Below the pieces are notes generated by a model. It was given only the letters and a program-made list of their open reading frames with translations. It made no database searches and was not told the origin of the DNA. Of a stretch of DNA of 64,000 bases, positions 3,837-46,310 are shown one piece after another. The DNA is taken from positions 4,343 through 68,342 of the forward strand of contig CAYJTB010000004.1 in assembly GCA_964372875.1 (NCBI GenBank). The letters are read 5' to 3'. The stretch is from an uncultured bacterium (GTDB lineage Bacteria; Omnitrophota; Omnitrophia; Omnitrophales; JACQLI01). Both the position numbers and the translations under genes were made by a program. Each line of letters opens with the position of its first letter. Within the stretch, counting starts at the first letter, position 1.

Positions 3837-6086
3837 TTGATGACAGACATAGCAATCACAGCACAGTTTTCAAGAGGTGAAGTTATCGCGCTATGGTCGG
3901 TTCTTGGGACCGCGGTAGCGGGTCTGATTTATGCTGGATTACTCATGGGGCAGGTGCTTCGCGAAAGCTGCGGCACTCCCGAGATGCAGAAGATCAGCGC
4001 CGCCATCCGGCTGGGGGCCAATGCCTACCTCAACCGTCAGTTTCGCGCCATAACCTTTCTCATCCTTCTTCTTACCGCGGCACTTTATTTTACCGTCGGT
4101 GAAAAATATATTGCGATCGGCCGCGCCTGTGCGTTTTTGATGGGCTCGATTTTTTCCGCGACCGTAGGATTTGTGGGAATGAATCTTGCGGTCAGAGGCA
4201 ATGTCCGTGTCGCTGCAGCCGCCAACCGGGGAAGTTTTAGCCAAGCCCTTAAAATTGCTTACCGTACGGGTACCATTACAGGAATGTTAACCGATGGCCT
4301 GGGTCTTTTCGGCGGCACGGTTATTTTTATGATTTACGGTGAAAGGGCCTATGAAATACTCCTCGGGTTTGGTTTCGGCGGAACCTTGATAGCCCTTTTT
4401 ATGAGGGTAGGAGGGGGCATTTACACCAAGGCCGCGGACGTGGGCGCAGACCTTGTCGGCAAGATTGAAAAAAATATCCCTGAGGACGACCCCAGAAATG
4501 CGGCAACCATTGCTGACAATGTGGGAGACAATGTAGGTGATTGCGCCGGAATGGCCGCTGATATCTTCGAATCCTACGAAGTAACGATTGTCTCCGCCAT
4601 GATTTTGGGTTGGGCCTCTTACGGACATAAGGGCGTTATTTTTCCCTTGCTGGTTCGTGCGATCGGTGTGATTAGTTCTATCATCGGGACCTATGCTGTT
4701 CGGACATCTGAGGAAGTCCGTAATGCCATGAAGGCCATCAATCTTGGATTTATTTTGTCGGCCTTAGTTTCCATTGTCGGTTTTATTATTGTCGGTTTCT
4801 TTTATCTGCGTTTCCCGGAATCAGGGGCCCTTCCTTTTTGGCACAGCTTTGGAATTCCCGGTCTTGACCTGCGGCCGGTTTGGACTACCCTCATAGGAAT
4901 TGCACTGGCAGTGGTGATTAATCGTTTGACGGAATACTACACCGATACAGCAAAGCCTCCTGTCCAGTCCATCGCGGAGTCCTGCCAAACAGGCCACGCC
5001 ACCACCATCATTACAGGGTTTGCCGTAGGTCTTGAAAGCTCGGTCTGGGCCGTGGTCGTGATTTCAGTCTCCATTCTTTTATCAGCTTTTGTTTATCACG
5101 GAACCAACCCTACTTTTATCGCCTATGGCGTGGCGATGTCAGGAATCGGACTCCTCACACTGACCGGCAATAATATTTCCATGGACGTTTTTGGCCCGGT
5201 CGCTGACAACGCCAATGGAATCGGGGAGATGGCCCATCTGCCCAAAGCGGCGAGACAAATCCTGGCGGATCTTGACGCCGTTGGAAATACGACCAAAGCC
5301 ATCACCAAAGGAGTTGCGATCGCCTCCGCTGTGGTAGCCGCCATTTCACTTTTTAATGCCTACATTACCGACATCGGCACGCTTACCCAACAAACCTATG
5401 ATCAAGTCGCATCGCTCCTTTCTATTTCTACGCACACGGTTTTTGTGGGACTTTTGATCGGAGGAGCCATTCCCTTTTTATTCAGTTCTCTTATGGTAAA
5501 AGCCGTGGGCAGAGCCGCCTTTTTAATTGTTAAAGAAGTGAGAGAACAGCTGCAGGATCCCGAAATTTGGGAAGGAAAAAAACTTCCGGATTATGCGCGC
5601 GTGGTTTCTATCTGCACCACGGCCGCACAAAAAGAATTGATCCGTCCGGGTTTATTGGCGATTCTTGCGCCTCTTCTGATCGGGCTGCTTTTGAAAAAAG
5701 AAGCGCTCGGAGGCTTCTTAGCGGGAATGATTCTCTCAGGCCAGCTTCTGGCCGTTTTTATGGCCAATGCGGGCGGTGCTTGGGATAACGCTAAAAAATT
5801 TATCGAAGACGGAAATTTTGGCGGAAAAGGCTCGGAGGCTCACAAGGCCTCAGTCACCGGCGACACGGTAGGCGATCCTTTAAAAGACACGGCCGGCCCG
5901 GCCTTGAATCCTTTGATCAAGGTGATGAATATGGTCGCACTCCTTTCCATCCCCATTGTGGTGCGTTATGAAAATTCGCCGGTCGCTTTTTGGATATCTG
6001 CCGTCATCGGAATCTTTTTGATTGTCATTCTTGTCCGCAGTCCCAAGCCGAGCAAAGAAGAACTCGCCATTATTCAGAAGGCATAA
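3837..6086 (+). CDS. hppA: Membrane-bound proton-translocating inorganic pyrophosphatase (V-type H+-PPase).
   Basis: [25 protein letters not shown] signature, DxxxxDxxxD motifs and about 16 TM helices. The GNTTKA motif (Lys rather than Ala) indicates the K+-independent subtype. Confidence 0.92.
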
Positions 6087-18477: not shown

Positions 18478-18506
18478 TTGACAAATATATACTATTGTGC
18501 TATTTT
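18478..18506 (+). promoter_or_regulatory. Sigma70-like promoter (TTGACA, 17-nt spacer, TATTTT) in the AT-rich spacer ahead of the HTH and NusG-like genes.
   Basis: TTGACAaatatatactattgtgcTATTTT. The surrounding roughly 290 nt are strongly AT-rich compared with flanking DNA. Confidence 0.35.
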
Positions 18507-18595
18507 TTGCTAGGGATTTCAACAATTTGAACTCATTTGAGTCAAGTTGAGATCAATAAAGATCACGCAAGTTAGCGAAAGGAGATATATAAATC

Positions 18596-18820
18596 GTGAA
18601 CGAAGACCTAAGAGAAAATAAGAGAGCGGAATACCCTCGCCGCGAGAGAACTCAAATCATGACACCGAAAGAGGCCGCAAAGTATTTGGGGTTCCATCTT
18701 GTGACCATCTATCGGCTGCTTAAGAAAAGAGAAATTCCTGCCGTAAAGATCGGCGGTCAGTGGAGATTTAAGAAAGACGTTTTGGATGCTTGGCTTGTGG
18801 AACGGATGGGAAGAGCTTAA
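18596..18820 (+). CDS. Small helix-turn-helix DNA-binding protein of the excisionase/AlpA (HTH_17) family.
   Basis: MTPKEAAKYLGFHLVTIYRLLKKREIPAVKIGGQWRFKKDVLDAWL is a canonical HTH_17 fold. The start is GTG at 18596 (with AAGGAGA RBS) or ATG at 18659. Confidence 0.6.
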   Translation: MNEDLRENKRAEYPRRERTQIMTPKEAAKYLGFHLVTIYRLLKKREIPAVKIGGQWRFKKDVLDAWLVERMGRA

Positions 18821-18843
18821 ACCTCTCAGAGGATTACCCATCG

Positions 18844-19365
18844 ATGGTTATCGCATCAAGTTCTGTATCTTGGGATGAGTTACATTGGTATGCCCTTTAC
18901 ACAAAAAGCCGGCATGAGAAAGTAGTTGAGGAAGGGCTTCAAGGTAAAGGAATCAAGACCTTCCTTCCAACCCGGAAACTTATTCGTCATTGGACGGACC
19001 GGGTCAAGCATATCGAGGAACCCATCTTTAAGGGTTACCTTTTCGTTCAAATCCCCTTGAGAAAACAATTGGAAGTCTTGGAAACCCGCGGCTCCGTTCG
19101 TCTGATTGGGTTTAATTCTTTTCCAGTTCCTATTCCTGAAAAAGAGTTAGAGACTGTCCGAAAATTTATTCAAGAGGACATTGCAATTGATCCCTACCCT
19201 TATTTAGCGGTGGGGAATCGGGTCTATGTCCGTTCCGGCCCGTTCAAAGGGGTCGAAGGTTTTATTGTTCGTAAAGACCGGCATACGCGCCTCGTGATGT
19301 CACTGGATCTTTTATTTCAATCGATCTCTGTCGAAATCGACGAAGCGCTTGTAGAAAAAATATAG
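18844..19365 (+). CDS. NusG-family operon-specific transcription antiterminator (RfaH/UpxY/LoaP-like paralog).
   Basis: An NGN domain (WYALYTKSRHEKVVEEGL...PIFKGYLFVQ) plus a C-terminal KOW (GNRVYVRSGPFKGVEGFIVRKD). It sits immediately upstream of the long plus-strand glycan locus. Confidence 0.7.
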   Translation: MVIASSSVSWDELHWYALYTKSRHEKVVEEGLQGKGIKTFLPTRKLIRHWTDRVKHIEEPIFKGYLFVQIPLRKQLEVLETRGSVRLIGFNSFPVPIPEKELETVRKFIQEDIAIDPYPYLAVGNRVYVRSGPFKGVEGFIVRKDRHTRLVMSLDLLFQSISVEIDEALVEKI

Positions 19366-19367
19366 CC

Positions 19368-19434
19368 GTCATTCTGAGCCGCCAAAGGCGGCGAAGAATC
19401 TTAGATCTTTCAGCCCTTCGGGCTTCAAGATGAC
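19368..19434. repeat. Palindromic repeat element, copy B, with termini GTCATTCTGAGC...TCAAGATGAC and an internal GCCC-UUCG-GGGC hairpin.
   Basis: It shares termini and internal blocks with copy A (6100-6187) and begins 3 nt after the NusG-like stop codon. Confidence 0.6.
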
Positions 19435-19569
19435 AAGAATGCCCCTCGCTAAGTCCTTCTGGGACTGAGAGGGCGAAGCTGTGTAAAGCAATGAAAAATA
19501 TAAAATTAAGAATGGAAAATGAACAGCGTATGCAATTTTGCATTTTACATTTTAGATTTTGAAATTTTT

Positions 19570-21546
19570 ATGTGCGGAATCGCAGCCATATTTGCTTACC
19601 ACTACGTAGCTCCTGAGGTCAATCGGGAAGAGCTCCGGCTTATAAGAGATGCCATGGCTTCCCGGGGCCCCGACGGTGTAGGCGAGTGGTTTTCTGAAAA
19701 TGGGAAGGTCGGCTTGGGACACCGCCGGCTTTCCATTATTGATCTTTCTCCCAGAGGCGCCCAGCCGATGCAAACGGAAGACGGAAAAATTGTCGTGAGC
19801 TTCAACGGAGAAATTTATAACTATCGCGAGTTGCGTTCAGACCTCGAAAACAAAGGTCGTATTTTCAGATCGAATTCAGATACCGAAGTCCTGCTTCATC
19901 TTTATCAATTAAAAGGCCAGGCAATGGTTCACGATCTTCGGGGAATGTTTGCCTTTACATTGTGGGACGGCAGAAAAAATTCTTTGTTCCTTGCACGCGA
20001 TCCCTATGGGATCAAACCTCTTTATTATGCGGACGATGGCTGGACGGTTCGAGTTGCCTCTCAAGTCAAAGCACTGCTAAAAAGCGACAAGGTTTCAAAA
20101 TTAGCCGAGCCCGCCGGAACCGTGGGTTTTTTTCTGATGGGCAGCGTTCCCGAACCCTACACGCTTTATCAAGAAATCCGTCAAGTCCCCGCAGGGAGTT
20201 ATGTTTGGGTGGATGAGCTGGGACCGTCATCACCGAAAAGATATTTTTCGATTGCGGAGATTTTAACGTCATCGCGAGGAGGCCGTAGAGATCCCTCGCT
20301 CGTCATTGCGAGCCCGACGAAGTCGGACGAAGCAATCTCGGGCTCGGGACAGGCTCCGCAATCCGGTTCTGAGATTGCTTCGGCATCACTTGAAACACCG
20401 CCTCGCAATGACGTAAGTGTTCACTCCGCGCTTCTCGACTCCGTTCGCCATCATTTTGTTTCGGACGTTCCGGTGGGAATATTCCTTTCCGGCGGAATTG
20501 ATTCGGGATCCTTGGTATCTCTTGCAAGAGAGACCGGAATCCAAGATCTGCAAACCATGACTTTGGCATTCGAAGAATTTTACGGAGGTTCTTTGGATGA
20601 GATGCTTTGGGCAGAAACCGCCGCCCGAAAATTCGGCACCCGGCATACCTCACATACTCTTACGGAAAATGAATTCAAAAAAGAATTACCTCACTTTTTT
20701 GAATCCATGGATCAGCCGACAATTGATGGAGTGAATACTTATTTTATAAGTAAGGCCGCCCACGAATCGGGATTAAAAGTTGCTTTGTCAGGCCTTGGCG
20801 GAGATGAACTCTTTGGCGGCTACTCAACTTTTCAGGATATTCCTCGGCTGGTTGGGGCATTGGCCTTTCCCTCAAGAATTCCATTTTTGGGCGACGGTTT
20901 TCGTCATTTGTTTTCTATTCCAAGCCTACGACCAAAGTCGTTACACCCTAAATATGCGGGCCTTCTCAAATACGGTGCAAGCTATTCAAGCGCCTACTTT
21001 CTCCGACGCGGGCTTTTCATGCCGTGGGAATTAGACTCGGTGATGGGCAAAGAGATGGTTCACGAAGGATTAAACAGGCTTCAATTACTGCCGTCGATAA
21101 AAAGGACGCTTCAGCCCGAACCCAAAGATCCTTTTGCCAAAGTTGCCACCTTGGAGTCTTCCTTATATATGCGCAATCAACTGCTCCGTGATACCGATTG
21201 GGCGGGAATGGCTCACTCTTTGGAAGTGCGTACACCTTTCGTCGACTCAACGCTTCTAAAGAAACTGGTCCCTTTTTTAGTTTCTGAAAATCATCCTCAT
21301 AATGCCGGAAAAAAAATTCTCACCGGAAGTCTTAGCAATCCTTTACCCGGAGAAATTACCCGTCGTGCGAAAACAGGTTTTTCTGTCCCCGTGGAAAAAT
21401 GGTTGGAAAAAGGCGGCGAATTAGATATGTGGCAGCGAATCCCCAGCTTGCAAAGCCAAGGGACTCCGTGGGCCAGGCGGTGGGCTTATGTCGTGATGTC
21501 AACTTTCAATAATGCAGTCGTAAAAGAGGAGGCGAGTGTCACATGA
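19570..21546 (+). CDS. Asparagine synthase (glutamine-hydrolysing)-like amidotransferase, paralog 1. It contains an in-frame palindromic-element insertion.
   Basis: MCGI N-terminal nucleophile Cys, an Ntn glutaminase domain and an SDVPVGIFLSGGIDSG PP-loop. The ORF-track start at 19519 is upstream of the real MCGI start. Confidence 0.85.
   Translation: MCGIAAIFAYHYVAPEVNREELRLIRDAMASRGPDGVGEWFSENGKVGLGHRRLSIIDLSPRGAQPMQTEDGKIVVSFNGEIYNYRELRSDLENKGRIFRSNSDTEVLLHLYQLKGQAMVHDLRGMFAFTLWDGRKNSLFLARDPYGIKPLYYADDGWTVRVASQVKALLKSDKVSKLAEPAGTVGFFLMGSVPEPYTLYQEIRQVPAGSYVWVDELGPSSPKRYFSIAEILTSSRGGRRDPSLVIASPTKSDEAISGSGQAPQSGSEIASASLETPPRNDVSVHSALLDSVRHHFVSDVPVGIFLSGGIDSGSLVSLARETGIQDLQTMTLAFEEFYGGSLDEMLWAETAARKFGTRHTSHTLTENEFKKELPHFFESMDQPTIDGVNTYFISKAAHESGLKVALSGLGGDELFGGYSTFQDIPRLVGALAFPSRIPFLGDGFRHLFSIPSLRPKSLHPKYAGLLKYGASYSSAYFLRRGLFMPWELDSVMGKEMVHEGLNRLQLLPSIKRTLQPEPKDPFAKVATLESSLYMRNQLLRDTDWAGMAHSLEVRTPFVDSTLLKKLVPFLVSENHPHNAGKKILTGSLSNPLPGEITRRAKTGFSVPVEKWLEKGGELDMWQRIPSLQSQGTPWARRWAYVVMSTFNNAVVKEEASVT
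20301..20413. repeat. Palindromic repeat element, copy C (CGTCATTGCGAGC ... GCTCGCAATGACG), inserted in frame within the AsnB-like coding sequence.
   Basis: A perfect 12-bp terminal inverted repeat, a nested inner inverted repeat (GAAGCAATCTC / GAGATTGCTTC) and a CCGAC-GAA-GTCGG hairpin. It encodes a low-complexity S/A/P/G-rich linker that is absent from the paralog at 40455. Confidence 0.65.
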
Positions 21547-22565
21547 ATATTAGCTGGGAAAGATGCCGGGTGCTTGTAACAGGCGGGGCTTCATTTATTG
21601 GCTCAAGCCTTGTCAGAGAACTAGTGGTCAGGCAAGCGAAGGTGCGGGTTGTAGACAATTTAACCAGCGGAAAGTTAGGCAATATTCAAGATCTGGTCGA
21701 AGACGAGACCATCGAATTTATGCAAGGAGATCTCCTTGATAAAGAAACAGCACGTCATGCGGCCAGTGGGATGCAAGTTGTTTTTCACTTGGCTGCGGAT
21801 CACGGCGGACGCGGCTATGTGGATCTGCATCAGGTGGAATGCGCTACCAATTTAATTCTAGACGGGATTTTTTTTAAAGCTTGTTATGAGGCAGGCGTTG
21901 AAAAAGTAGTCTTCGCCTCTTCAGGCTGCGTTTACCCGAATTACAAACAAATGAATACGGCGGAAGAAATTTATCTAACCGAAAATCAAGTGGGCCCGCC
22001 TTATGACGCGGATAATATGTACGGCTGGGCGAAGCTTATGGCGGAGCTCACACTTAAGGCTTATTACCAGCAGCGAAAAATGAAATCCGCAAGCTGCCGG
22101 TTCTTTACGGTCTACGGCCCGGGAGGAGTTGAGAATCACGCGGTCATTGCAATGATCGCGCGCGCCTTTACCCGGCAGGATCCTTTCGAAGTTTGGGGCG
22201 ACGGATCGCAGATCCGCAATTGGACCTACATCGATGACATTGTGAGCGGGATGATCGCGGCGGCGGAAAAAATCGAGGACGGCACGGCGGTTAATCTCGG
22301 CACGATGGAAAGAATCCGCGTGATTGACGCCGTAAAAGAAGTCTTGCGATATACCGGCCATAAAGCTGAGATCAAATTTCGTCCTGATATGCCGACCGGG
22401 CCCCTGAACCGAGTGGCTGACAACTCGCTGGCCAAAAAATTGATGGGTTGGGAACCCAAAGTTTCATTTATGGAAGGCCTTCACCGGACGATTGATTGGT
22501 ATGTCGGCACTAAAAATCGTGAGGATGTGGAAGCGATTCTCGGCCACATGCTGACGGAGCGATAA
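21543..22565 (+). CDS. NAD-dependent sugar epimerase/dehydratase (extended SDR).
   Basis: VTGGASFIGSSL Rossmann motif and YGWAK (YxxxK) active site. Confidence 0.7.
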   Translation: MNISWERCRVLVTGGASFIGSSLVRELVVRQAKVRVVDNLTSGKLGNIQDLVEDETIEFMQGDLLDKETARHAASGMQVVFHLAADHGGRGYVDLHQVECATNLILDGIFFKACYEAGVEKVVFASSGCVYPNYKQMNTAEEIYLTENQVGPPYDADNMYGWAKLMAELTLKAYYQQRKMKSASCRFFTVYGPGGVENHAVIAMIARAFTRQDPFEVWGDGSQIRNWTYIDDIVSGMIAAAEKIEDGTAVNLGTMERIRVIDAVKEVLRYTGHKAEIKFRPDMPTGPLNRVADNSLAKKLMGWEPKVSFMEGLHRTIDWYVGTKNREDVEAILGHMLTER

Positions 22566-22570
22566 AACGG

Positions 22571-23644
22571 ATGAAAATTTTAGCCTTGGTAACGGAGGCC
22601 TATGGAGGAGCGGGAGGAATCGCCAGGTTTAATCGCGATCTTCTTAAGGCGCTGTCTCAAATCGAACCTCAGCCAGAGATCGTAATATTACCGCGCGTTC
22701 GCCCCTACGGGGCTCGCAATGACGGATTGGTAGGTAAATTAGGTTACGCTACTGCGGCCTTAAAAACATTTTGGCAACAAGGCCCTTTCGATTTAATTTT
22801 CTGCGGCCATCTTCACTTAGCGCCTTTGGCCGCGCTTCTTTCACGAATGAAGAAAACGCCGGTTTGGCTTCAAATTCACGGCATCGAGGCATGGCAGAGA
22901 CCGTCTGATCTTCTCGCCCGGGCGGCGGAGAGCTCAGATCTTGTCACTGCGGTAAGCCGCCATACCCGAAGAGAATTTTTAGAGTGGGCCTCTATCGATC
23001 CTGGGAAAGTGCGCGTTCTCCCCAATACCGTGGATGAAAATTTTACCCCCGGTCCCAAACCGGACTACCTGCTCAAGCGTTACGGATTAGAAAATAAAAA
23101 AATTCTTTTCACCCTCTCCAGGTTGTCCTCTCAAGAAAAATATAAAGGCCATGACCGGGTTATCCGTGTCCTGCCACGCCTCCTGGAAAAATTCCCCAGC
23201 CTCGTTTATACGATCGGAGGATCGGGCGATGATCAAGCCAGGCTCCAGGCGCTAGCCGGGGAGTACCGATTAAAGGATGCGGTGATGTTTCTGGGTGAAA
23301 TCAAAGAGACCGAGCTTGCCGATCATTACCGCATGGCGGATCTTTTTGTGATGCCGAGCACGGGAGAAGGATTTGGGATCGTATTTCTTGAGGCGGCCCG
23401 CTCAGGAATTCCTGTTGTCGCTGCCGGGGCGGGAGGAGCTTTCGATGCCCTGCTGGAAGGAAAGATCGGGCGCTTGGTGAATCCGGATGATGCTGATGCG
23501 CTGGCGCAAGCCATTGAAGAAACTTTAGCTTCCCGTACCCATTCCCCCAAACTTGTTCAGCGATTTTCTTCCGCCAACTTTCACCAGTTGGTTGAAACTT
23601 TGATGAATGACCGGCTTGTTTTGACGGGTGTTGAAAATGGTTAG
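22571..23644 (+). CDS. Glycosyltransferase family 4.
   Basis: C-terminal EGFGIVFLEAARSGIPVVA (E-x7-E) GT-B motif. Confidence 0.75.
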   Translation: MKILALVTEAYGGAGGIARFNRDLLKALSQIEPQPEIVILPRVRPYGARNDGLVGKLGYATAALKTFWQQGPFDLIFCGHLHLAPLAALLSRMKKTPVWLQIHGIEAWQRPSDLLARAAESSDLVTAVSRHTRREFLEWASIDPGKVRVLPNTVDENFTPGPKPDYLLKRYGLENKKILFTLSRLSSQEKYKGHDRVIRVLPRLLEKFPSLVYTIGGSGDDQARLQALAGEYRLKDAVMFLGEIKETELADHYRMADLFVMPSTGEGFGIVFLEAARSGIPVVAAGAGGAFDALLEGKIGRLVNPDDADALAQAIEETLASRTHSPKLVQRFSSANFHQLVETLMNDRLVLTGVENG

Positions 23645-24506
23645 CCTGGAACGAATTAAAAACGCAATCCGGAACCGGTATTTTTCAGAAAACCGGGTTG
23701 TCGTCATTGAACCGGCAAAAGGCTGGCGGATGTTGGACTTCAGAGAACTCTGGGCTTATCGGGAACTGTTTGGGGTATTGGCATTAAGAGACATCAAAAT
23801 CCGCTATAAGCAAACGGTCCTGGGTTGCGCCTGGGCCGTCATTCAACCGGTGATGGGAATGGTGGTGTTTTCTGTTATTTTCGGACATTGGGCCAAGATA
23901 CCCTCAGACGGTTACCCGTACCCAATTTTTGTTTATGCCGGACTTCTCCCTTGGAATTTTTTTGCGGCCACTCTGGCCGCAGCGGGAAATTCCGTGGTGA
24001 GTTCCTCCAATCTTATCACTAAAGTTTATTTCCCTCGCCTGATCGTTCCCATGGCTTCTTTAGGGACACCTCTTGTGGACTTTTTCATTTCCTCGTTTGT
24101 CATGCTGTCGCTCATGATATATTTCAAAGTCGGATTGCATATCAACCTTCTCGCGATTCCATTTTTGATTCTCGCCGTTATTTTTACCGCGCTCGGCGTG
24201 GGGACTTTGCTTTCGGCTTTAGTCGTTGCGTACCGCGACTTCCGATTCGTGATCCCCTTTCTTTTGCAAGTCTGGATGTATGCGACGCCCGTGATTTTTC
24301 CGATCGGGCTTGTGCCGAGCCAATGGCGGTGGGCGCTTTATCTCAATCCGATGGCCGGCATCATCGATGGGTTCAGGTCTGCATTTTTGGGAAAACCTTT
24401 TAATCTCGATGTCCTTGGGCTTTCCTTTTGTGCGGGCATCGTCATGTTTATTATTGGGGTAGCTTATTTCGAAAAAGTCGAGCGCCGTTTCGCGGATGTA
24501 ATTTGA
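23628..24506 (+). CDS. wzm: ABC-2 type polysaccharide export permease (Wzm/KpsM/TagG-like).
   Basis: Six TM helices and an ABC-2 permease signature. The cognate ATPase lies about 3.9 kb downstream, beyond an accessory insertion. Confidence 0.8.
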   Translation: MLKMVSLERIKNAIRNRYFSENRVVVIEPAKGWRMLDFRELWAYRELFGVLALRDIKIRYKQTVLGCAWAVIQPVMGMVVFSVIFGHWAKIPSDGYPYPIFVYAGLLPWNFFAATLAAAGNSVVSSSNLITKVYFPRLIVPMASLGTPLVDFFISSFVMLSLMIYFKVGLHINLLAIPFLILAVIFTALGVGTLLSALVVAYRDFRFVIPFLLQVWMYATPVIFPIGLVPSQWRWALYLNPMAGIIDGFRSAFLGKPFNLDVLGLSFCAGIVMFIIGVAYFEKVERRFADVI

Positions 24507-24507
24507 T
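24454..24507. repeat. A 54-bp perfect direct repeat, copy 1, covering the 3' end of wzm. Copy 2 is at 26077-26130.
   Basis: Exact identity (TTGGGGTAGCTTATTTCGAAAAAGTCGAGCGCCGTTTCGCGGATGTAATTTGAT) at both positions. Confidence 0.85.
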
Positions 24508-25699: not shown

Positions 25700-26085
25700 G
25701 TGGATTAACGGTGAAAAAGAAATCGACAGGCCGTGAACAAGCTCAGGGATTCAACTTCTTCAAAAAAGCGGGGCCTTCTTCATCCTCCTGGGAGAATCAA
25801 GTTCGCAGCCTCTGGAGGGAGTATCTCGTTGAGACGTTGGGGAGACCCGAGGAGAATGCCCGCGAGAGGATCGAGCAAGAGATTTCAGCTTCTATCTATC
25901 ACGAACTTCTCTCCGGATTGGAAACGGCGGGATGGAAATTTGAGGGAAGCGTGGCCATTGACATCGGCTGCGGCACGGGCGGCCTTGTGGGTGAACTCGT
26001 AAAACGATCGGCCCATGCGGTGGGAATCGAACCCGGCACGGCTTGGCGCGAAGCGCCGAGCCAACGGCTGTTATCCTTGGGGTAG
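25696..26085 (+). pseudogene. 3'-truncated class I SAM-dependent methyltransferase fragment.
   Basis: Only motif I (IDIGCGTGGLVGELV) and motif post-I are present. The ORF runs into direct-repeat copy 2 and stops after 129 aa. Confidence 0.5.
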
Positions 26086-26130
26086 CTTATTTCGAAAAAG
26101 TCGAGCGCCGTTTCGCGGATGTAATTTGAT
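26077..26130. repeat. A 54-bp perfect direct repeat, copy 2, duplicating the wzm 3' end.
   Basis: Identical to 24454-24507. Confidence 0.85.
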
Positions 26131-38045: not shown

Positions 38046-38762
38046 CTGGAAATTCTAGGTATTATTCCGGCACGCGGCGGATCCAAGGGGATTCCGAAGA
38101 AAAATATTTCTCCTTTGGCCGGAAAACCGCTTCTGTCTTATACCTGCGAAGCGGCTCTGGCAAGCAAAAGACTTACGCGCGTCGTCTTAAGCACAGAAGA
38201 CCCGGCTATCGCCGAAATCGGTAAACAATGGGGAGTTGAAATTCCCTTTTTTCGCCCAGCGGCACTCGCCAAAGACGAAACCCCAAGTTTGGATGTCGTT
38301 CAACACGTCTTAAGAAAACTTCAGGAAAATGAATGCTATCAGCCGACCGTAATCGTGTTGCTTCAACCTACTTCCCCGCTTCGTCGGCCGGAACATATTG
38401 ATCAAGCGGTAGACATCCTATTAGAAACAAGGGCGGATTCTGTCGTCAGCGTCATGGAAGTTCCTCATCAATTTAGTCCGGTTTCCTTAATGGAGTTAAA
38501 AAATGAAAAGCTCGTTTCCCTGCAAGAAGGGGGATTGCCTATTTTAAGACGTCAGGATAAGCCCCGGCTTTACGCGCGGAACGGTCCGGCGGTTCTAGCG
38601 GTTCGAACACAAGTCATCATGGAAGGCAATAATCTCTATGGCAAGGATTGCCGTCCTTTCGTCATGGATCCTTTGGACTCCATTGATATTGATGGTCCGG
38701 CGGACATTGAAATTGCGGAGTTTCTTTTGCTTAAGCGTCAACATGGTTCTCACCTTCACTAA
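38046..38762 (+). CDS. neuA: Acylneuraminate cytidylyltransferase (CMP-nonulosonic acid synthetase). It has a non-canonical start codon.
   Basis: ILGIIPARGGSKGIPKKNISPLAGKPLLSYT is the NeuA N-terminal signature and lies upstream of the tool's TTG start. There is no in-frame ATG/GTG/TTG between the stop at 38028 and this motif. AGGAGG at 38035-38040 precedes a CTG at 38046. Confidence 0.7.
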   Translation: MEILGIIPARGGSKGIPKKNISPLAGKPLLSYTCEAALASKRLTRVVLSTEDPAIAEIGKQWGVEIPFFRPAALAKDETPSLDVVQHVLRKLQENECYQPTVIVLLQPTSPLRRPEHIDQAVDILLETRADSVVSVMEVPHQFSPVSLMELKNEKLVSLQEGGLPILRRQDKPRLYARNGPAVLAVRTQVIMEGNNLYGKDCRPFVMDPLDSIDIDGPADIEIAEFLLLKRQHGSHLH

Positions 38763-38787
38763 CGGAAAGTTAAAGAATCTTTTAAAA

Positions 38788-40470
38788 ATGTCATTACGGA
38801 AAATCTGGCGCTATCTTCGCAGGCCCCAAACGATTTTCCATGATATGGATTTAAGCCGGGACTTTTATGAGTTCAAGCAGAAATATAACTTCCTTTCCGA
38901 TCCCGCTGCATCTTCTGCTCCCGGGAAGAAAGTTTTGATTGTCAGCCTGACCGATTGGATCGCCCAAATCAAAATGGAGGGGATGTTGGCCAAGGCGCTT
39001 CAGATAAAAGGTTTTACCCCTGTGATTGTGACCAACCGCTCATGTCAGCGAGCTATCAAATATTTTCGAGTTTTTGGGTATAACGAATTTATTTTCTTCG
39101 ACGAGTTGCTCGCCGCCACTTTCAAAGAATCTCTTTTGAAAGAGACGCAGGCACTTCTTTCGACTAATCCTTCATTTAAGTCACTTTGCGATTTCAAGTA
39201 CCGCGGCGTGGATACAGGCCGGCATGTTTTATCGGCGATCACACGTTCCCTTCGCCACGGGAGCATTGAATTTTCTAATCCTCAGGTAAAGGAGCTGCTA
39301 ACAGAATGCCTGCCTCGGTCGATGCAAGCGGTTTTGGCAGCCGAACTTCTTTTCGACAAAGTAGAACCGGCAATAACTCTTTTTTTAGAAAAAGGTTACA
39401 CGCCTTACGGGGAAATTTTTGATGTGTCGGTCAATCGGGGCGTGGACACCATCCAATTTATGCGTTCCCATCGCTCCGATGCTCTTGCTCTTAAACGTTA
39501 CCATCGGGGAAATCGCCACCTCCACCCGTTTTCTTTATCCGAAGAGACTTGGAAGCAGGTTAAGGAAATGCCATGGACGGAACTTTGCGAGCAAGAATTA
39601 ATGAAAGAACTCAAAGGACGTTATGAAAACGGCACTTGGTTTAACCGTAAGTACCTTCAAGTAGGGAAAAAAATAAAGAGCTCAGCGGAGGTGCGAAGCC
39701 AGCTGGGCCTTGATCCGCATAAAAAAACAGCCGTCATTTTTTCTCACGTTCTTTGGGATGCCACTTTTTTTTACGGGGAGAGCTTGTTTAATGATTATGA
39801 AGAATGGCTAGTGGAGACCGTAAAGGTTGCAAGCGAGAATGCAGCCGTCAATTGGATCATTAAACTCCATCCTGACTACGTGTGGAAAATGAAACAGATG
39901 GGCAGTAGCGCGAAGCCCCGGGATTTGTTAGCTCTCCAAGCAGGCATTGGCGAGCTTCCGCCGCACATTCATATCGTTGAACCCGACACGGATATCAGTA
40001 CTTATTCCCTTTTTGAAGTAACGGATTATTGTTTGACCGTACGCGGCACCATTGGCATTGAGATGCCTTGTTTTGGCATCCCAGTTTTTACTGCGGGAAC
40101 CGGGCGTTATTCCGGCCTGGGATTTACGATTGATTCACAGAGCCGAGAAGAATACCTCTCTCGCATCGAACATATTCTAGATTTTCCCCGCTTGAATCCA
40201 GAACAAACCTTATTGGCCAAGAAACACGCGTATGCACTCTTTAAACTTCGCCCCTGCCCATTCAAGACCTTTGAAATGGTTCAAATGCCTCTGAATCGTT
40301 TGGGGCATCCCCTGGACCATAATGTCGTTATCCGTGCAAAACGCATCAAAGAAATCTCTCAAGCTGCCGACATGAACACGTTTGCAGAATGGATCACCGA
40401 TTCTCACAACGTAGATTTTTTGATGCCTTTTCAAAAGAAAGAAAAGACAAGCCAATGTGTGGGATCGTAG
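38788..40470 (+). CDS. Hypothetical 560-aa protein, candidate capsule-biosynthesis/glycosyltransferase family (KpsC/KpsS-like?).
   Basis: It is a large soluble protein inside the glycan locus between neuA and asnB-like paralog 2. Any resemblance to Capsule_synth proteins is weak and unverified. Confidence 0.3.
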   Translation: MSLRKIWRYLRRPQTIFHDMDLSRDFYEFKQKYNFLSDPAASSAPGKKVLIVSLTDWIAQIKMEGMLAKALQIKGFTPVIVTNRSCQRAIKYFRVFGYNEFIFFDELLAATFKESLLKETQALLSTNPSFKSLCDFKYRGVDTGRHVLSAITRSLRHGSIEFSNPQVKELLTECLPRSMQAVLAAELLFDKVEPAITLFLEKGYTPYGEIFDVSVNRGVDTIQFMRSHRSDALALKRYHRGNRHLHPFSLSEETWKQVKEMPWTELCEQELMKELKGRYENGTWFNRKYLQVGKKIKSSAEVRSQLGLDPHKKTAVIFSHVLWDATFFYGESLFNDYEEWLVETVKVASENAAVNWIIKLHPDYVWKMKQMGSSAKPRDLLALQAGIGELPPHIHIVEPDTDISTYSLFEVTDYCLTVRGTIGIEMPCFGIPVFTAGTGRYSGLGFTIDSQSREEYLSRIEHILDFPRLNPEQTLLAKKHAYALFKLRPCPFKTFEMVQMPLNRLGHPLDHNVVIRAKRIKEISQAADMNTFAEWITDSHNVDFLMPFQKKEKTSQCVGS

Positions 40471-42317
40471 GTATTGTAGGTAAGCAGGATCCTTCGTGGA
40501 TCTCTCAGATGAATGCTTTTCAAATTCATCGAGGTCCGGATAGTTTCGGAGAATACCGCAATCCTAATCATGACGTTTCCCTGGCGATGCGGCGTCTCGC
40601 CATCCTGGATCTTGAGGGTGGCGACCAGCCGATGAGCAATGAAGATGAAACCCTCTGGATTGTCTATAACGGTGAAATTTACAATGCGCCGGAACTCCGC
40701 GCTCGCTTGGAAGCCCGCGGCCGGCATTTCAAAACTAGAAATTCCGACACCGAAGTTTTACTTCATCTCTATGAAGATAAAAAAGAAGATATGGTTCATG
40801 ATCTGAATGGAATGTTTTCTTTTGTCATTTATGACAAATCCCGCCGCCTGCTCTTTGGTGCGAGAGATCGGTTCGGCATCAAACCCTTTTATTATCTGCA
40901 GCATTCCGGTTGGTTCAGTTTTGCATCCGAGTTAAAAGCTTTTTTCCCCCTTCCCTTTTTTCAACGAGAAATAGACCCGGCAAGCGTTTTCCATTTCATG
41001 AGCCTTTTATATGTGCCGGGTGAGTCATCGATTTTTCGGGACGTCAAGCGCCTTCTCCCTGCCCATCAATTTAACTATAAGTTGGACACAAAAGAATTAT
41101 CCATTTCGCCTTACTGGGATCTGCAGCCCGGACGGACAGAGCAGAGATCCGAAGAAGAATGGTGCGAACTCATACGGACGGAACTTCAACAAGCGGTTAA
41201 ACGATGGATGCAAAGTGATGTTCCGCTAGGTTTTTCTCTTTCCGGAGGTGTCGATTCGTCCACTCTCGCGGCGCTAGCGGCCGAGTCAGGGCATTCCAAC
41301 ATCAAAACCTACTCGTTAGGATTTTCAAAATCAGAAGAACAAACATGGAGCGAATTACCCCTTTCAAGAATCGTGGCCCAGCATTACGGGACGGACCATC
41401 ACGAATTGGTCTTGGATGAGGAAACCCTCCTTCGGGATTTGCTGCACATGGTTTGGTTTTTGGATGAACCCTATGGAGGCGGGCTTCCTTCTTGGTACAT
41501 CTATAAATTTATGCGCGAAGAGGTAACTGTGGGAGTAACGGGTACGGGAGGCGATGAACTTTTCGGTAACTACGGGAAATTTCTCTGCTATGAAAACAGC
41601 CTTCTTCGAGCTCGATTCGAAACCGCGGTTTCGAAATTTATCAATCGGCCCCTTCTCGATCGTTACTTTCGTACTTGGTACTATATGACCGACGAAATCA
41701 AACGACAAATTTTGTTTCCTGGAAATAAAACTTACGCTTTCGACACCCCTTCCTTGCTTGAGGGAATTTACCGGCGTTCCGGAGCGCACAATATCCGGGA
41801 TGCGATCGCCTACGTCGACATTAAAACGCAATTGGTAGACGAATTTCTGTTCATGACCGATAGATTTTCAATGGCCCATTCTTTGGAAGCTAGAGTTCCT
41901 TTTCTTGATCACAAGTTTGCGGAGCTGATTTTTCGAATACCCGCGTCGGTGAGGACGCATCGCAATGATCCGAAATATCTCCTTAAAAAAGCCATGAAAG
42001 ATTTGCTGCCCCAAGAAATCACCCACGCCCCAAAGCGAGGCTTTACTATTCCAAATTGTATGTGGCTTCGGGGCCGCTTGGCTGCACTAGCGAAACAGCT
42101 TTTAGATCCGGAGCGCCTCGCAAGACAAGGCATTTTTCACCGTCAGTTTTATGATCAATTTGTCGAACCTCATCTGGACGGCCGGGCGGATCATACCTGG
42201 AAAGTCTGGCCGGCTTTAATGTTTCAATTATGGCACCTGGTATTTATAGAAGAAAAAGGGGATCACGCGCCTTCTTTTTCTTCGCAAGATATCGTTGGCA
42301 AAAAACGCACCTCTTGA
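40455..42317 (+). CDS. Asparagine synthase (glutamine-hydrolysing)-like amidotransferase, paralog 2.
   Basis: MCGIVGIVG N-terminus, an SDVPLGFSLSGGVDSS PP-loop and about 620 aa. It overlaps the upstream ORF by 16 nt. Confidence 0.85.
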   Translation: MCGIVGIVGKQDPSWISQMNAFQIHRGPDSFGEYRNPNHDVSLAMRRLAILDLEGGDQPMSNEDETLWIVYNGEIYNAPELRARLEARGRHFKTRNSDTEVLLHLYEDKKEDMVHDLNGMFSFVIYDKSRRLLFGARDRFGIKPFYYLQHSGWFSFASELKAFFPLPFFQREIDPASVFHFMSLLYVPGESSIFRDVKRLLPAHQFNYKLDTKELSISPYWDLQPGRTEQRSEEEWCELIRTELQQAVKRWMQSDVPLGFSLSGGVDSSTLAALAAESGHSNIKTYSLGFSKSEEQTWSELPLSRIVAQHYGTDHHELVLDEETLLRDLLHMVWFLDEPYGGGLPSWYIYKFMREEVTVGVTGTGGDELFGNYGKFLCYENSLLRARFETAVSKFINRPLLDRYFRTWYYMTDEIKRQILFPGNKTYAFDTPSLLEGIYRRSGAHNIRDAIAYVDIKTQLVDEFLFMTDRFSMAHSLEARVPFLDHKFAELIFRIPASVRTHRNDPKYLLKKAMKDLLPQEITHAPKRGFTIPNCMWLRGRLAALAKQLLDPERLARQGIFHRQFYDQFVEPHLDGRADHTWKVWPALMFQLWHLVFIEEKGDHAPSFSSQDIVGKKRTS

Positions 42318-44019: not shown

Positions 44020-44175
44020 GTTACTATCATTAAAATTATCCAAGTCCCATTTTGTTTTTATCCCGACGCGGTCGGGGGAACGGAAGTTTATGCCGAAGCG
44101 CTCGCTAAAAATTTGAAAAAGCTGAGCATAGAATCCGTAGTTTGCGAGCCTGCGGAGAGAGAAGAAGTGATATAA
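44020..44175 (+). pseudogene. Orphan 5' fragment of a GT4 gene (about 50 codons), duplicating the start of the GT4 gene at 44934.
   Basis: It translates to IIKIIQVPFCFYPDAVGGTEVYAEALAKNLKKLSIESVVCEPAERE, against the intact gene's FKTLQVPFCFYPDAVGGTEVYVEALAQGLKKFGVESVICAPAEKE. The first roughly 70 nt are near-identical and similarity then decays. Confidence 0.6.
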
Positions 44176-44933: not shown

Positions 44934-46310
44934 TTGTTCAAAACTCTCCAAGTCCCATTTTGTTTTTACCCCGACGCGGTCGGGGGAACGGAAGTTTATG
45001 TTGAAGCACTCGCTCAAGGTTTAAAAAAATTTGGAGTGGAGTCCGTGATATGCGCGCCGGCTGAAAAGGAGAGCGCCTATTCTCACAAAGGTCTCAAGGT
45101 TCGGCGCTTTGCTGTTCCTTCTGCGGTAAGTGATCTTCGGGAGCTTTACGGTGAAGGGAATTTCGAAGCAGCCCGGGCATTCTCCAAGATTTTGGATGAG
45201 GAAAAACCGGACCTTGTTCATCTTCACGCCTTCACGCGCGGCGTTTCTCTTCGTTTGGTACGCGAAGCAAAATCCAGAGGAATTCCTATTATCTTTACAT
45301 ATCACACGCCGACCGTGAGTTGCCAGCGGGGAACCTTGGTGCGTTGGGGTAAAGAAATCTGTGACGGCGTTCTTCGGCAGCGTCTCTGTTCTCAATGCAC
45401 GCTTCATGGCTTGGGAATGAATCGATTGGCTGCTCAAGCAATAGGAAGTCTTCCGTCCGTCGTCGGCCGGCTCATGGGACGAATGGGTCTCGCTGGAGGA
45501 GCTTGGACGGCCCTCCGAATGTCAGAACTTGTCAGACTCCGCCACCAAACACTTCATCGGTTTCTAGGAGAAGTTGACTCCATTGTTGCAACAGCTTATT
45601 GGGTCAGGGATCTTCTGGTTCGGAATCACGTATCCCCTCACAAGATCGCCGTCTCTCGGTATGGATTGTGTCAACCCTCCGCGCTCTCTACGAACTGCTC
45701 AAAATCGGAAGTCACGAGCTCACGACTAAGATTAAAAGTTGCTTTTATGGGTCGCATGGATAAGACCAAAGGACTTCATATTTTGATTCAGGCTGTGAAA
45801 TCGTCTCTTCGCCTTTCCGTCACCTTGGATCTTTATGGGGTTGCGCAAGGAGAATTCGGCCATGGCTATGAACGGGAGATGCATGCTTTGGCCGGAGAGG
45901 ATAGACGAATCACTTTCCATCCCTCCCTCCATGGCGAAGAAATTATATCTACATTGAAAAATTTCGATGTCCTCGCCGTCCCCTCTCAATGGTTGGAGAC
46001 AGGACCTATGGTGGTTCTGGAGGCATTCGCAGCTGGAATTCCCGTCGTGGGGTCGAATTTAGGCGGGATTTCAGAATTTGTTAAACATGAAACCAACGGC
46101 CTTTTGGTGGAAGAATTTCGATCAGCAAAAACATGGGCCGAATCCTTTCAGCGGCTTGTTGACAGCCCGGATTTGGTGGCCCGTTTGTCACGTGGGATAA
46201 AAGCTCCGAGAACCGTAGAAGAAATTGCCCAAGATATAATGTCTTTATATGAAACCCAACTTAGAAACAAAAACCCAAAGATTAAAGCCGCCCATGATGC
46301 CGACACTTAG
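44934..46310 (+). CDS. Glycosyltransferase family 4.
   Basis: GT-B fold with a C-terminal motif (ETGPMVVLEAFAAGIPVVGS). Confidence 0.75.
   Translation: MFKTLQVPFCFYPDAVGGTEVYVEALAQGLKKFGVESVICAPAEKESAYSHKGLKVRRFAVPSAVSDLRELYGEGNFEAARAFSKILDEEKPDLVHLHAFTRGVSLRLVREAKSRGIPIIFTYHTPTVSCQRGTLVRWGKEICDGVLRQRLCSQCTLHGLGMNRLAAQAIGSLPSVVGRLMGRMGLAGGAWTALRMSELVRLRHQTLHRFLGEVDSIVATAYWVRDLLVRNHVSPHKIAVSRYGLCQPSALSTNCSKSEVTSSRLRLKVAFMGRMDKTKGLHILIQAVKSSLRLSVTLDLYGVAQGEFGHGYEREMHALAGEDRRITFHPSLHGEEIISTLKNFDVLAVPSQWLETGPMVVLEAFAAGIPVVGSNLGGISEFVKHETNGLLVEEFRSAKTWAESFQRLVDSPDLVARLSRGIKAPRTVEEIAQDIMSLYETQLRNKNPKIKAAHDADT

Follow-up and report, generated by a model that had tools for sequence, protein, structure and literature searches.

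An in-frame cluster of CGTC-tagged REP-like units in the inter-domain linker of an AsnB-family gene from an uncultured Omnitrophota bacterium

We analyzed a palindromic insert in a gene for an AsnB-family glutamine amidotransferase, carried on a 64,000-nt stretch of contig CAYJTB010000004.1 from an uncultured Omnitrophota bacterium (hereafter the window; coordinates count from its first nucleotide). The best explanation, which we put at roughly 85%, is that three CGTC-tagged hairpin units resembling repetitive extragenic palindromes (REPs) replaced the linker between the two enzyme domains in frame, after the split from the closest known relative. Two of the units form a tags-outside ('HH') dimer comparable to REPINs (REP doublets forming hairpins), and the third is degenerate. 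A first-pass annotation of the window had described positions 20301-20413 as a single selfish element with a perfect 12-bp terminal inverted repeat (TIR) and a nested inner repeat, lying in frame at the glutaminase/synthetase boundary. The repeats, the frame and the location all stand, but instead of one TIR-bounded element the segment consists of two CGTC-tagged REP-like hairpin units that form a tags-outward dimer around a 31-nt spacer, and a third unit adjoins it.

Both arm pairs of this segment are 100% complementary over 12 nt, namely the outer arms at 20301-20312 and 20402-20413 (CGTCATTGCGAG and CTCGCAATGACG) and the nested inner arms at 20328-20339 and 20371-20382 (CGAAGCAATCTC and GAGATTGCTTCG). 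Each unit combines a CGTC tag and a short tail with a 5-bp stem (ATTGC/GCAAT) and an interior bordered by G/A-rich mismatches. The interior of the first dimer unit, u1, forms a mini-hairpin (CCGAC-GAA-GTCGG) with a GAA triloop, and the architecture of u1 is common to 139 units from the genome scan presented below. The spacer separating u1 from its inverted copy, u2, falls within the 20-40 nt range usual among the 125 dimers of this type from metagenomes. A degenerate unit, u0 (CGTCATCGCGAGGAGG...), ends four bases upstream of the dimer; it agrees with the canonical family unit CGTCATTGCGAGGAGC in 15 of the first 16 nt, and a 17-nt arm shows 88% complementarity to u2 at its right end. Allowing one mismatch, the 12-mer occurs four times in the window compared with 0.29 expected occurrences, and none of 100 shuffles reached four. 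Since only 0.29 matches are expected in the whole window, a chance match of u0 so close to the dimer is very unlikely. With u0 included, the repeat-derived block grows from 113 nt, which is not divisible by 3, to 147 nt (20267-20413), or exactly 49 codons (aa 233-281) with no in-frame stop. The extra segment is thus repeat-derived, as originally proposed, but its extent had been drawn too narrowly. Positions 20301-20413 encode the S/A/P/G-rich peptide LVIASPTKSDEAISGSGQAPQSGSEIASASLETPPRNDV. A contig assembled independently in Logan (run ERR3478686) agrees with window positions 19720-23700 at 100% identity, insert included, so the insert is no artefact of assembly.

P0002, the closest ortholog at 83% identity to the window protein, shares the UpxY-AsnB gene order and lies on two groundwater contigs (L001 and L002); the same synteny is present in the orthologous loci L001, L123 and L125. 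The P0002 linker is 18 aa long and repeat-free, an ordinary length for the family, and bears out the proposal that a selfish palindromic repeat was inserted here. In 84 of the 120 closest homologs the linker measures 21 aa, and in all but four of the 120 it measures 14-27 aa; those four, the only ones with linkers of at least 33 aa, all carry CGTC-type units in their DNA. At 54 aa (162 nt), the window linker retains only 1 + 14 nt that are not repeat-derived, so the cluster effectively replaced the ancestral linker instead of being added to it. Orthologs are the informative comparison for these features. The second AsnB paralog of the window (40455-42317), which had been cited as lacking the segment, belongs to a different subfamily and is uninformative for the insert because it is only 30% identical. 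Directly upstream of this paralog, and overlapping it, lies a 610-aa open reading frame (ORF; 38638-40470) with no Pfam match.

These comparisons bear on whether the segment is simply a native low-complexity linker whose palindromic DNA is coincidental, a reading we regard as exceedingly improbable. Linker lengths do vary in this family, as given above, and the S/A/P/G-rich peptide resembles many linkers; nevertheless, coincidence would have to account for two perfect 12-nt inverted repeats, for the strong enrichment of the 12-mer over chance, for boxes identical to those of a repeat family at hundreds of unrelated loci, and for the absence of the segment from an ortholog with 83% identity. 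The peptide occurs in no unrelated homolog, nor is the segment a conserved linker.

Homolog alignment shows that the start codon is the ATG at 19570 (MCGI..., with the N-terminal nucleophile Cys), as taken in the first-pass annotation, and the ORF reads through the insert. In its polysaccharide locus, the gene comes first behind a gene for a UpxY-type antiterminator. The Pfam domains GATase_7 (aa 51-170) and Asn_synthase (aa 284-622) lie on either side of the insert, and the protein scores over the cut-off of NCBIfam TIGR01536. For the structure we used an AlphaFold run with a 119-sequence alignment (mean predicted local distance difference test score, pLDDT, 88.5; predicted template modelling score, pTM, 0.89) and set aside a 25-sequence run (mean pLDDT 62.7). 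The modelled fold matches TsnB9 (7ylz) and E. coli AsnB (1ct9), and residue 284 of the window protein aligns with residue 211 of 1CT9, in the helix leading into the PP-loop. Residues 239-280 are the sole segment with pLDDT below 50 and form a coil between helix 228-237 and helix 284-295; the model thus places the insert in a predicted disordered surface loop at the domain junction, in line with the surface linker that the earlier annotation expected.

Mobile repeats often mark decaying genes (PMC10969869), and the AsnB paralog in the same locus could cover for a lost function, which raises the question of whether the insertion inactivated or crippled the gene and left an incipient pseudogene. 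We consider this very unlikely, as the 658-codon frame is intact, the model shows two confident domains with only the loop disordered, and the paralog is too distant (30% identity, different subfamily). Cys2, the SGGIDS PP-loop (SGGxDS) and all residues invariant across 119 homologs are kept, from which we infer that the enzyme is probably still active with its insert. Nothing suggests a function for the insert itself, which would be a passenger that persists because the linker tolerates almost any sequence.

Related genes show this linker to be a hot-spot for palindromic repeats. At least three other orthologs gained unrelated palindrome clusters at this site independently, with CGTC-type units that differ in type, number and orientation (Table 1), and in a further homolog, P0008 (L295), another palindrome (CCCCCTCACCC...GGGTGAGGGGG) occupies the same linker (aa 235) as well as a second loop (aa 539). 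In a neighbor-joining tree, every carrier has a cluster-free sister, the pairs being the window protein and P0002, P0045 and P0037 (89.7% identical), and P0022 and P0014, with P0010 just outside the last pair. In P0045, a 94-nt dimer stands in place of the 58-nt linker of P0037, with no duplication visible. We also considered whether the 'empty' linker of P0037 is itself a decayed element; its similarity to the P0045 dimer is not significant, as 231 of 2000 shuffles scored equally well, and we rejected this candidate. Separately, P0045 and P0037 share a C-terminal extension (..MSSLRAKRSNLSLRSPRPLAASR) that is encoded by another tags-outward CGTC dimer (L124:4900-4990), which provides the last ~20 residues and the stop codon. 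The simplest reading of the recurrence is that the linker is a permissive site and that insertions elsewhere in the gene are purged by selection, although a target preference for the linker is a possible alternative.

Recurrence at one linker could also mean that the insert is kept for what its RNA or DNA does, perhaps as a hairpin that pauses translation between domains, as a processing or stability element, or as a modulator of the first gene in the UpxY-controlled operon. The 161-nt region folds strongly as RNA (-72 kcal/mol, z -4.8 versus shuffles), and as DNA it reaches -37.8 kcal/mol (z -4.5); moreover, a second dimer lies in the 5' intergenic region of the AsnB gene, and many REPs have been argued to act as RNA elements (PMC3733652). 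A regulatory role of the mRNA hairpin is nonetheless unsupported, because the orthologs carry different elements at the linker and most homologs carry none, and a permissive linker explains the recurrence equally well. Scans for promoters and terminators detected no promoter-like or terminator-like signal at the elements, and an Rfam scan of 18500-23500 returned no relevant family. We therefore hold such a role to be improbable, if less so than pseudogene formation, and retain the replacement of the linker by passenger repeats as the preferred explanation.

To place the units in a known family, we compared them with the classification of Di Nocera, De Gregorio and Rocco (2013; BMC Genomics 14:522; PMC3733652), in which REPs are split into GTAG- and CGTC-tagged superfamilies. 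CGTC units there fall into four families, carry an unpaired terminal tag (CGTC, or TGTC/CCTC), have a stem of 8-9 bp that starts with AT, a loop of 4-5 nt (their Table 1) and a short unpaired 3-nt tail (consensus CCA), and occur mainly as tags-outside dimers with occasional clusters. In-frame intragenic copies encoding 20-82 aa were reported in several species, and no transposase gene was found beside the repeats. In the window, the CGTC tag starts u0, u1, u2 and a partial unit in a GT4 glycosyltransferase gene, and an intergenic pair carries CGTC and TGTC; the first stem positions are A and T in u1, u2 and the intergenic pair; and both dimers, at 20301-20413 and at 19367-19435, carry their tags on the outside. 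In contrast, the 5-bp outer stem, G/A mismatches and 15-19 nt interior depart from the published stem and loop dimensions, and the hosts are uncultured groundwater-type bacteria, whereas those surveyed in the 2013 study were mainly alphaproteobacterial. The short tail reads CTC here; related units in public genomes mostly have CAG, CAT or CCA. Because tag, AT-start stem and dimer type are shared and the dimensions are not, we class the units within the CGTC superfamily as a variant with long units.

A genome scan for exact CGTCATTGCGAG-N8-30-GAAGCAATC, with one genome per species, found at least 120 loci with both boxes. Bradyrhizobium, Rickettsia, Tisiphia, Pedobacter, Patescibacteria, Omnitrophota, Planctomycetota and Anaerolineae were represented, with others, among the matches listed, in which GAGCGAAGCGAC was the commonest unit interior. 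Scanning metagenomes for the junction at the inside of tags-outward dimers likewise yielded at least 120 loci, and among the matches listed 72 of 125 dimers had tags on both outer sides. Spacers differed between these loci and were near-identical among copies on one contig, so dimer and spacer are copied as one unit, in the manner of a REPIN. Eight long open frames spanned metagenomic dimers. Two of these, among the 125 random dimers, were in-frame insertions in real, unrelated housekeeping genes with Pfam matches that span the inserts (hemC and a methylthiotransferase gene; Table 1). The remaining six were rejected, five of them because they look by eye like spurious antisense frames in high-GC DNA and one because it lies upstream of its gene.

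Several observations weigh against the replacement of the linker by CGTC REP-like units, or limit how far it can be taken. The dimensions of the units fit none of the four published CGTC families. The units are just modestly ORF-friendly, with 4.66 of 6 frames open compared with 3.98 in shuffles, and dimer lengths are uniform modulo 3; a strong selection of units for ORF compatibility was rejected on these grounds, and the in-frame survivors would instead be the minority of insertions left after filtering. Neither exact insertion boundaries nor a target-site duplication can be drawn, because at 83% protein identity the linker has diverged too far. Insert boundaries were read from the protein alignment and are imprecise, as a MAFFT alignment of the DNA with L001 and L002 placed the gap wrongly. 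We found no direct repeat flanking 20301-20413 or 20267-20413, the closest empty site being the ortholog at 83% protein identity. Even in the close pair P0045/P0037, the element replaces a 58-nt linker instead of interrupting it. Copies were counted in 64 kb of the genome, in which the two dimers and two partial units all fall within 19367-22724. Finally, both the activity of the enzyme and the translation of the insert are predictions.

Table 1 Repeat units, genes and loci discussed in the text. Coordinates without a locus prefix refer to the window.
Feature	Coordinates	Strand or orientation	Details
UpxY-family (NusG-like) antiterminator gene	18790-19365	+	NCBIfam NF033644
Intergenic dimer of related units, tags outward	19367-19435	+ and -	+ CGTCATTCTGAG..GAAGAATCT; - TGTCATCTTGAAG..AAGATCT; between UpxY-like and AsnB genes
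AsnB-family glutamine amidotransferase gene	19570-21546	+	658 aa; Pfam, NCBIfam, predicted structure
Unit u0, degenerate, CGTC-tagged	20267-20296	+	CGTCATCGCGAGGAGGCCGTAGAGATCC...; encodes ~TSSRGGRRDP; 1 mismatch in 12-mer
Unit u1	20301-20339	+	CGTCATTGCGAG-CCCGACGAAGTCGGA-CGAAGCAATCTC; CGTC-ATTGC-GAG-(CCGAC GAA GTCGG)-A-CGAA-GCAAT-CTC; encodes VIASPTKSDEAIS
Dimer spacer between u1 and u2	20340-20370		31 nt
Unit u2, inverted copy	20371-20413	-	reverse complement CGTCATTGCGAG-GCGGTGTTTCAAGTGATGC-CGAAGCAATCTC; + strand reading EIASASLETPPRND
Partial CGTC unit	22690-22724	-	CCGTCATTGCGAG-CCCCGTAGGGG-CGAACGCGCG; in frame in GT4 glycosyltransferase gene
P0010 linker cluster		+, -, -	three CGTC-type units, stems ATCCT, ATTCT, ATTGC
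P0045 linker cluster		tags inward	dimer of CGTC-type units
P0022 linker cluster			one CGTC-type unit and one truncated
Ortholog linker clusters	L123:3679-3909; L124:3712-3843; L125:3679-3813		CGTC-type units
In-frame metagenomic dimers	L210; L157		hemC (porphobilinogen deaminase) in L210; radical-SAM methylthiotransferase in L157
Nested GIY-YIG loci	L067:4056-4432; L027:5078-5359; L157:4931-5197; L168:1858-2145; L238:3220-3507; L247, L257, L269; L270-L292		

The other repeat units of the window lie close to the AsnB insert. The stems of the intergenic dimer are ATTCT...GAAT and ATCTT...AAGAT, with CGTC and TGTC as the respective tags, and the dimer is absent from the orthologous L001 region (the P0002 locus), which has a GTTAC-rich repeated stretch instead. 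The partial unit in the GT4 glycosyltransferase gene combines an exact copy of the 12-mer with a GCCCC-GTA-GGGGC hairpin and is read as ..RPYGARNDG..; it sits in a variable N-terminal loop that differs from that of the 57%-identical L002 ortholog and constitutes a second in-frame case, 2.3 kb from the AsnB insert. Two further repeat pairs were noted in the window, a 60-nt direct repeat at the ends of polysaccharide-locus genes (24448-24507 and 26071-26130; 97% identical, 1.6 kb apart) and a 125-nt repeat (44032-44156 and 44940-45064; 81% identical, 0.9 kb apart), both of which look like partial gene duplications.

A possible clue to how such units move comes from genes found between them. In 244 loci retrieved through DNA patterns we listed the ORFs with a unit on either side, and four unrelated loci among them encode homologous 95-aa GIY-YIG proteins between the units (Pfam E 1e-13 to 4e-18). 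A tblastn search of the same loci identified nine GIY-YIG genes, eight of which have CGTC-type units within ~50 nt. In L027, L067, L157 and L168, a unit(+) is followed after 13-50 nt by the gene and, 0-12 nt further on, by a unit(-), such that the gene fills the spacer of a tags-outward dimer; the L067 protein is encoded at 4104-4394. The association holds when loci are chosen through the protein: flanking units were present at all three loci fetched by GIY-YIG protein identity, and 14 of 17 loci picked by protein similarity alone had tagged hairpins within 170 nt on both sides, compared with a mean of 0.05 for shuffled flanks (some GIY-YIG loci are redundant, and 'viral' contigs may be host fragments). 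GIY-YIG genes are thus physically associated with CGTC units. The type of flanking unit, moreover, follows the nuclease clade, with classical short GC-rich units in one clade (GTCATCCCGGA, GTCATCCCGCA, GTCATCCCAGC and GTCACCCCGGA, one per sub-clade) and, in the other, long units of the GTCATTGCGAG and GTCATyCTGAG types, like those of the window.

The nested proteins are related to the UPF0213 structural-genomics entries 1zg2 and 1ywl and match no NCBIfam model, and a profile search with them retrieved at least 8000 homologs at E <=1e-10. Many of these homologs lie on contigs of only 500-1500 nt, as expected if a multi-copy cassette breaks short-read assemblies. Taken together, these data raise the possibility, which we judge at slightly less than even odds, that CGTC-tagged REPs are partnered with a very large family of ~95-aa stand-alone, UPF0213-related GIY-YIG nucleases. 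The proposed cassette of ~400 bp would comprise a unit(+), the nuclease gene in the dimer-spacer position and a unit(-), and gene-less dimers would be its non-autonomous derivatives or be mobilized by the nuclease in trans; the system would resemble a REPtron with a GIY-YIG nuclease in place of the HUH transposase. A mobilizing role of the nuclease is suggested by this arrangement of genes and units. The AsnB cluster may have arrived by the putative mechanism that moves CGTC REPs, perhaps with a small GIY-YIG nuclease from another part of the genome acting in trans. The 64-kb window itself contains no GIY-YIG gene. We found no literature linking GIY-YIG nucleases to REPs, REPINs, MITEs (miniature transposable elements with inverted repeats) or the 11-mer GTCATTGCGAG among open-access papers and bioRxiv preprints. 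If the nesting is functional, it would answer what mobilizes the CGTC repeat superfamily and make the question experimentally testable.

On its own, the AsnB insert is a palindromic repeat turned protein, of a kind known from Rickettsia and a few other bacteria, and ordinary in kind. It extends this behavior to uncultured environmental-type lineages, with 12-nt head and 9-nt tail boxes that are identical from Rickettsiales to Patescibacteria and Omnitrophota. More broadly, inter-domain linkers may be routinely renewed by selfish hairpins, which would offer a simple route to linker turnover and to new surface peptides.

Among known systems, intragenic MITEs (ERIC, Coxiella QMITE1, Anabaena MITEb/e) are likewise small inverted-repeat elements able to create in-frame fusions with host ORFs (PMC10969869). 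They differ in being derived from insertion sequences (ISs), with TIRs and target-site duplications, whereas neither a target-site duplication nor a parent IS is detectable here; we found no parent IS with the same ends, and only the 95-aa GIY-YIG genes are repeatedly nested between such ends. REPINs are closer in architecture, as two inverted REP hairpins and their spacer are copied as one non-autonomous unit. They carry a GTAG tag, however, and are partnered with an HUH tyrosine transposase, the REP-associated tyrosine transposase or RAYT (Bertels and Rainey 2011; PMC3116915), while the tag here is CGTC and the genes nested between CGTC units encode GIY-YIG nucleases. Of the 36 ORFs with units on either side in the 244 loci, none was RAYT-like (IS200/IS605-like Y1), as judged from N-terminal sequences only, with no domain search.

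The closest parallel in behavior is with the Rickettsia palindromic elements (RPEs, RPE-1 to RPE-10; Ogata et al. 2000/2002), which, as summarized in PMC10969869 and PMC3733652, are palindromes inserted in frame in housekeeping genes and translated as surface peptides. The intact frame and the predicted disordered surface loop resemble those of RPE inserts in functional genes, and units with CGTCATTGCGAG/GAAGCAATC boxes also occur in contigs of Rickettsia endosymbionts and Tisiphia. In the published classification, CGTC-1 of R. conorii corresponds to RPE-6 and CGTC-4 to RPE-4, while R. prowazekii and R. typhi have no CGTC repeats (PMC3733652). A comparison at the level of peptides shows that the products of CGTC-1 and CGTC-4 differ from VIASPTKSDEAIS (VIPAKAGI and SFPRKRES, for example, for CGTC-1, with WIPWSNHGMT also among the CGTC-1/CGTC-4 peptides); the host is also a different one, and two in-frame cases in 64 kb contrast with dozens genome-wide in R. 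conorii. The likeness to Rickettsia is closer than the first-pass annotation supposed, in that the CGTC tag belongs to the superfamily that includes RPE-4 and RPE-6, but the behavior is less unusual than that annotation held. Published in-frame GTAG and CGTC REPs in several non-rickettsial species and the metagenomic in-frame cases show it to be known and not confined to Rickettsia, and the AsnB insert adds a case to the in-frame intragenic CGTC REPs already described. What goes beyond this known kind is the repeated colonization of one linker, together with the consistent nesting of GIY-YIG genes between CGTC units, which suggests a partner enzyme.

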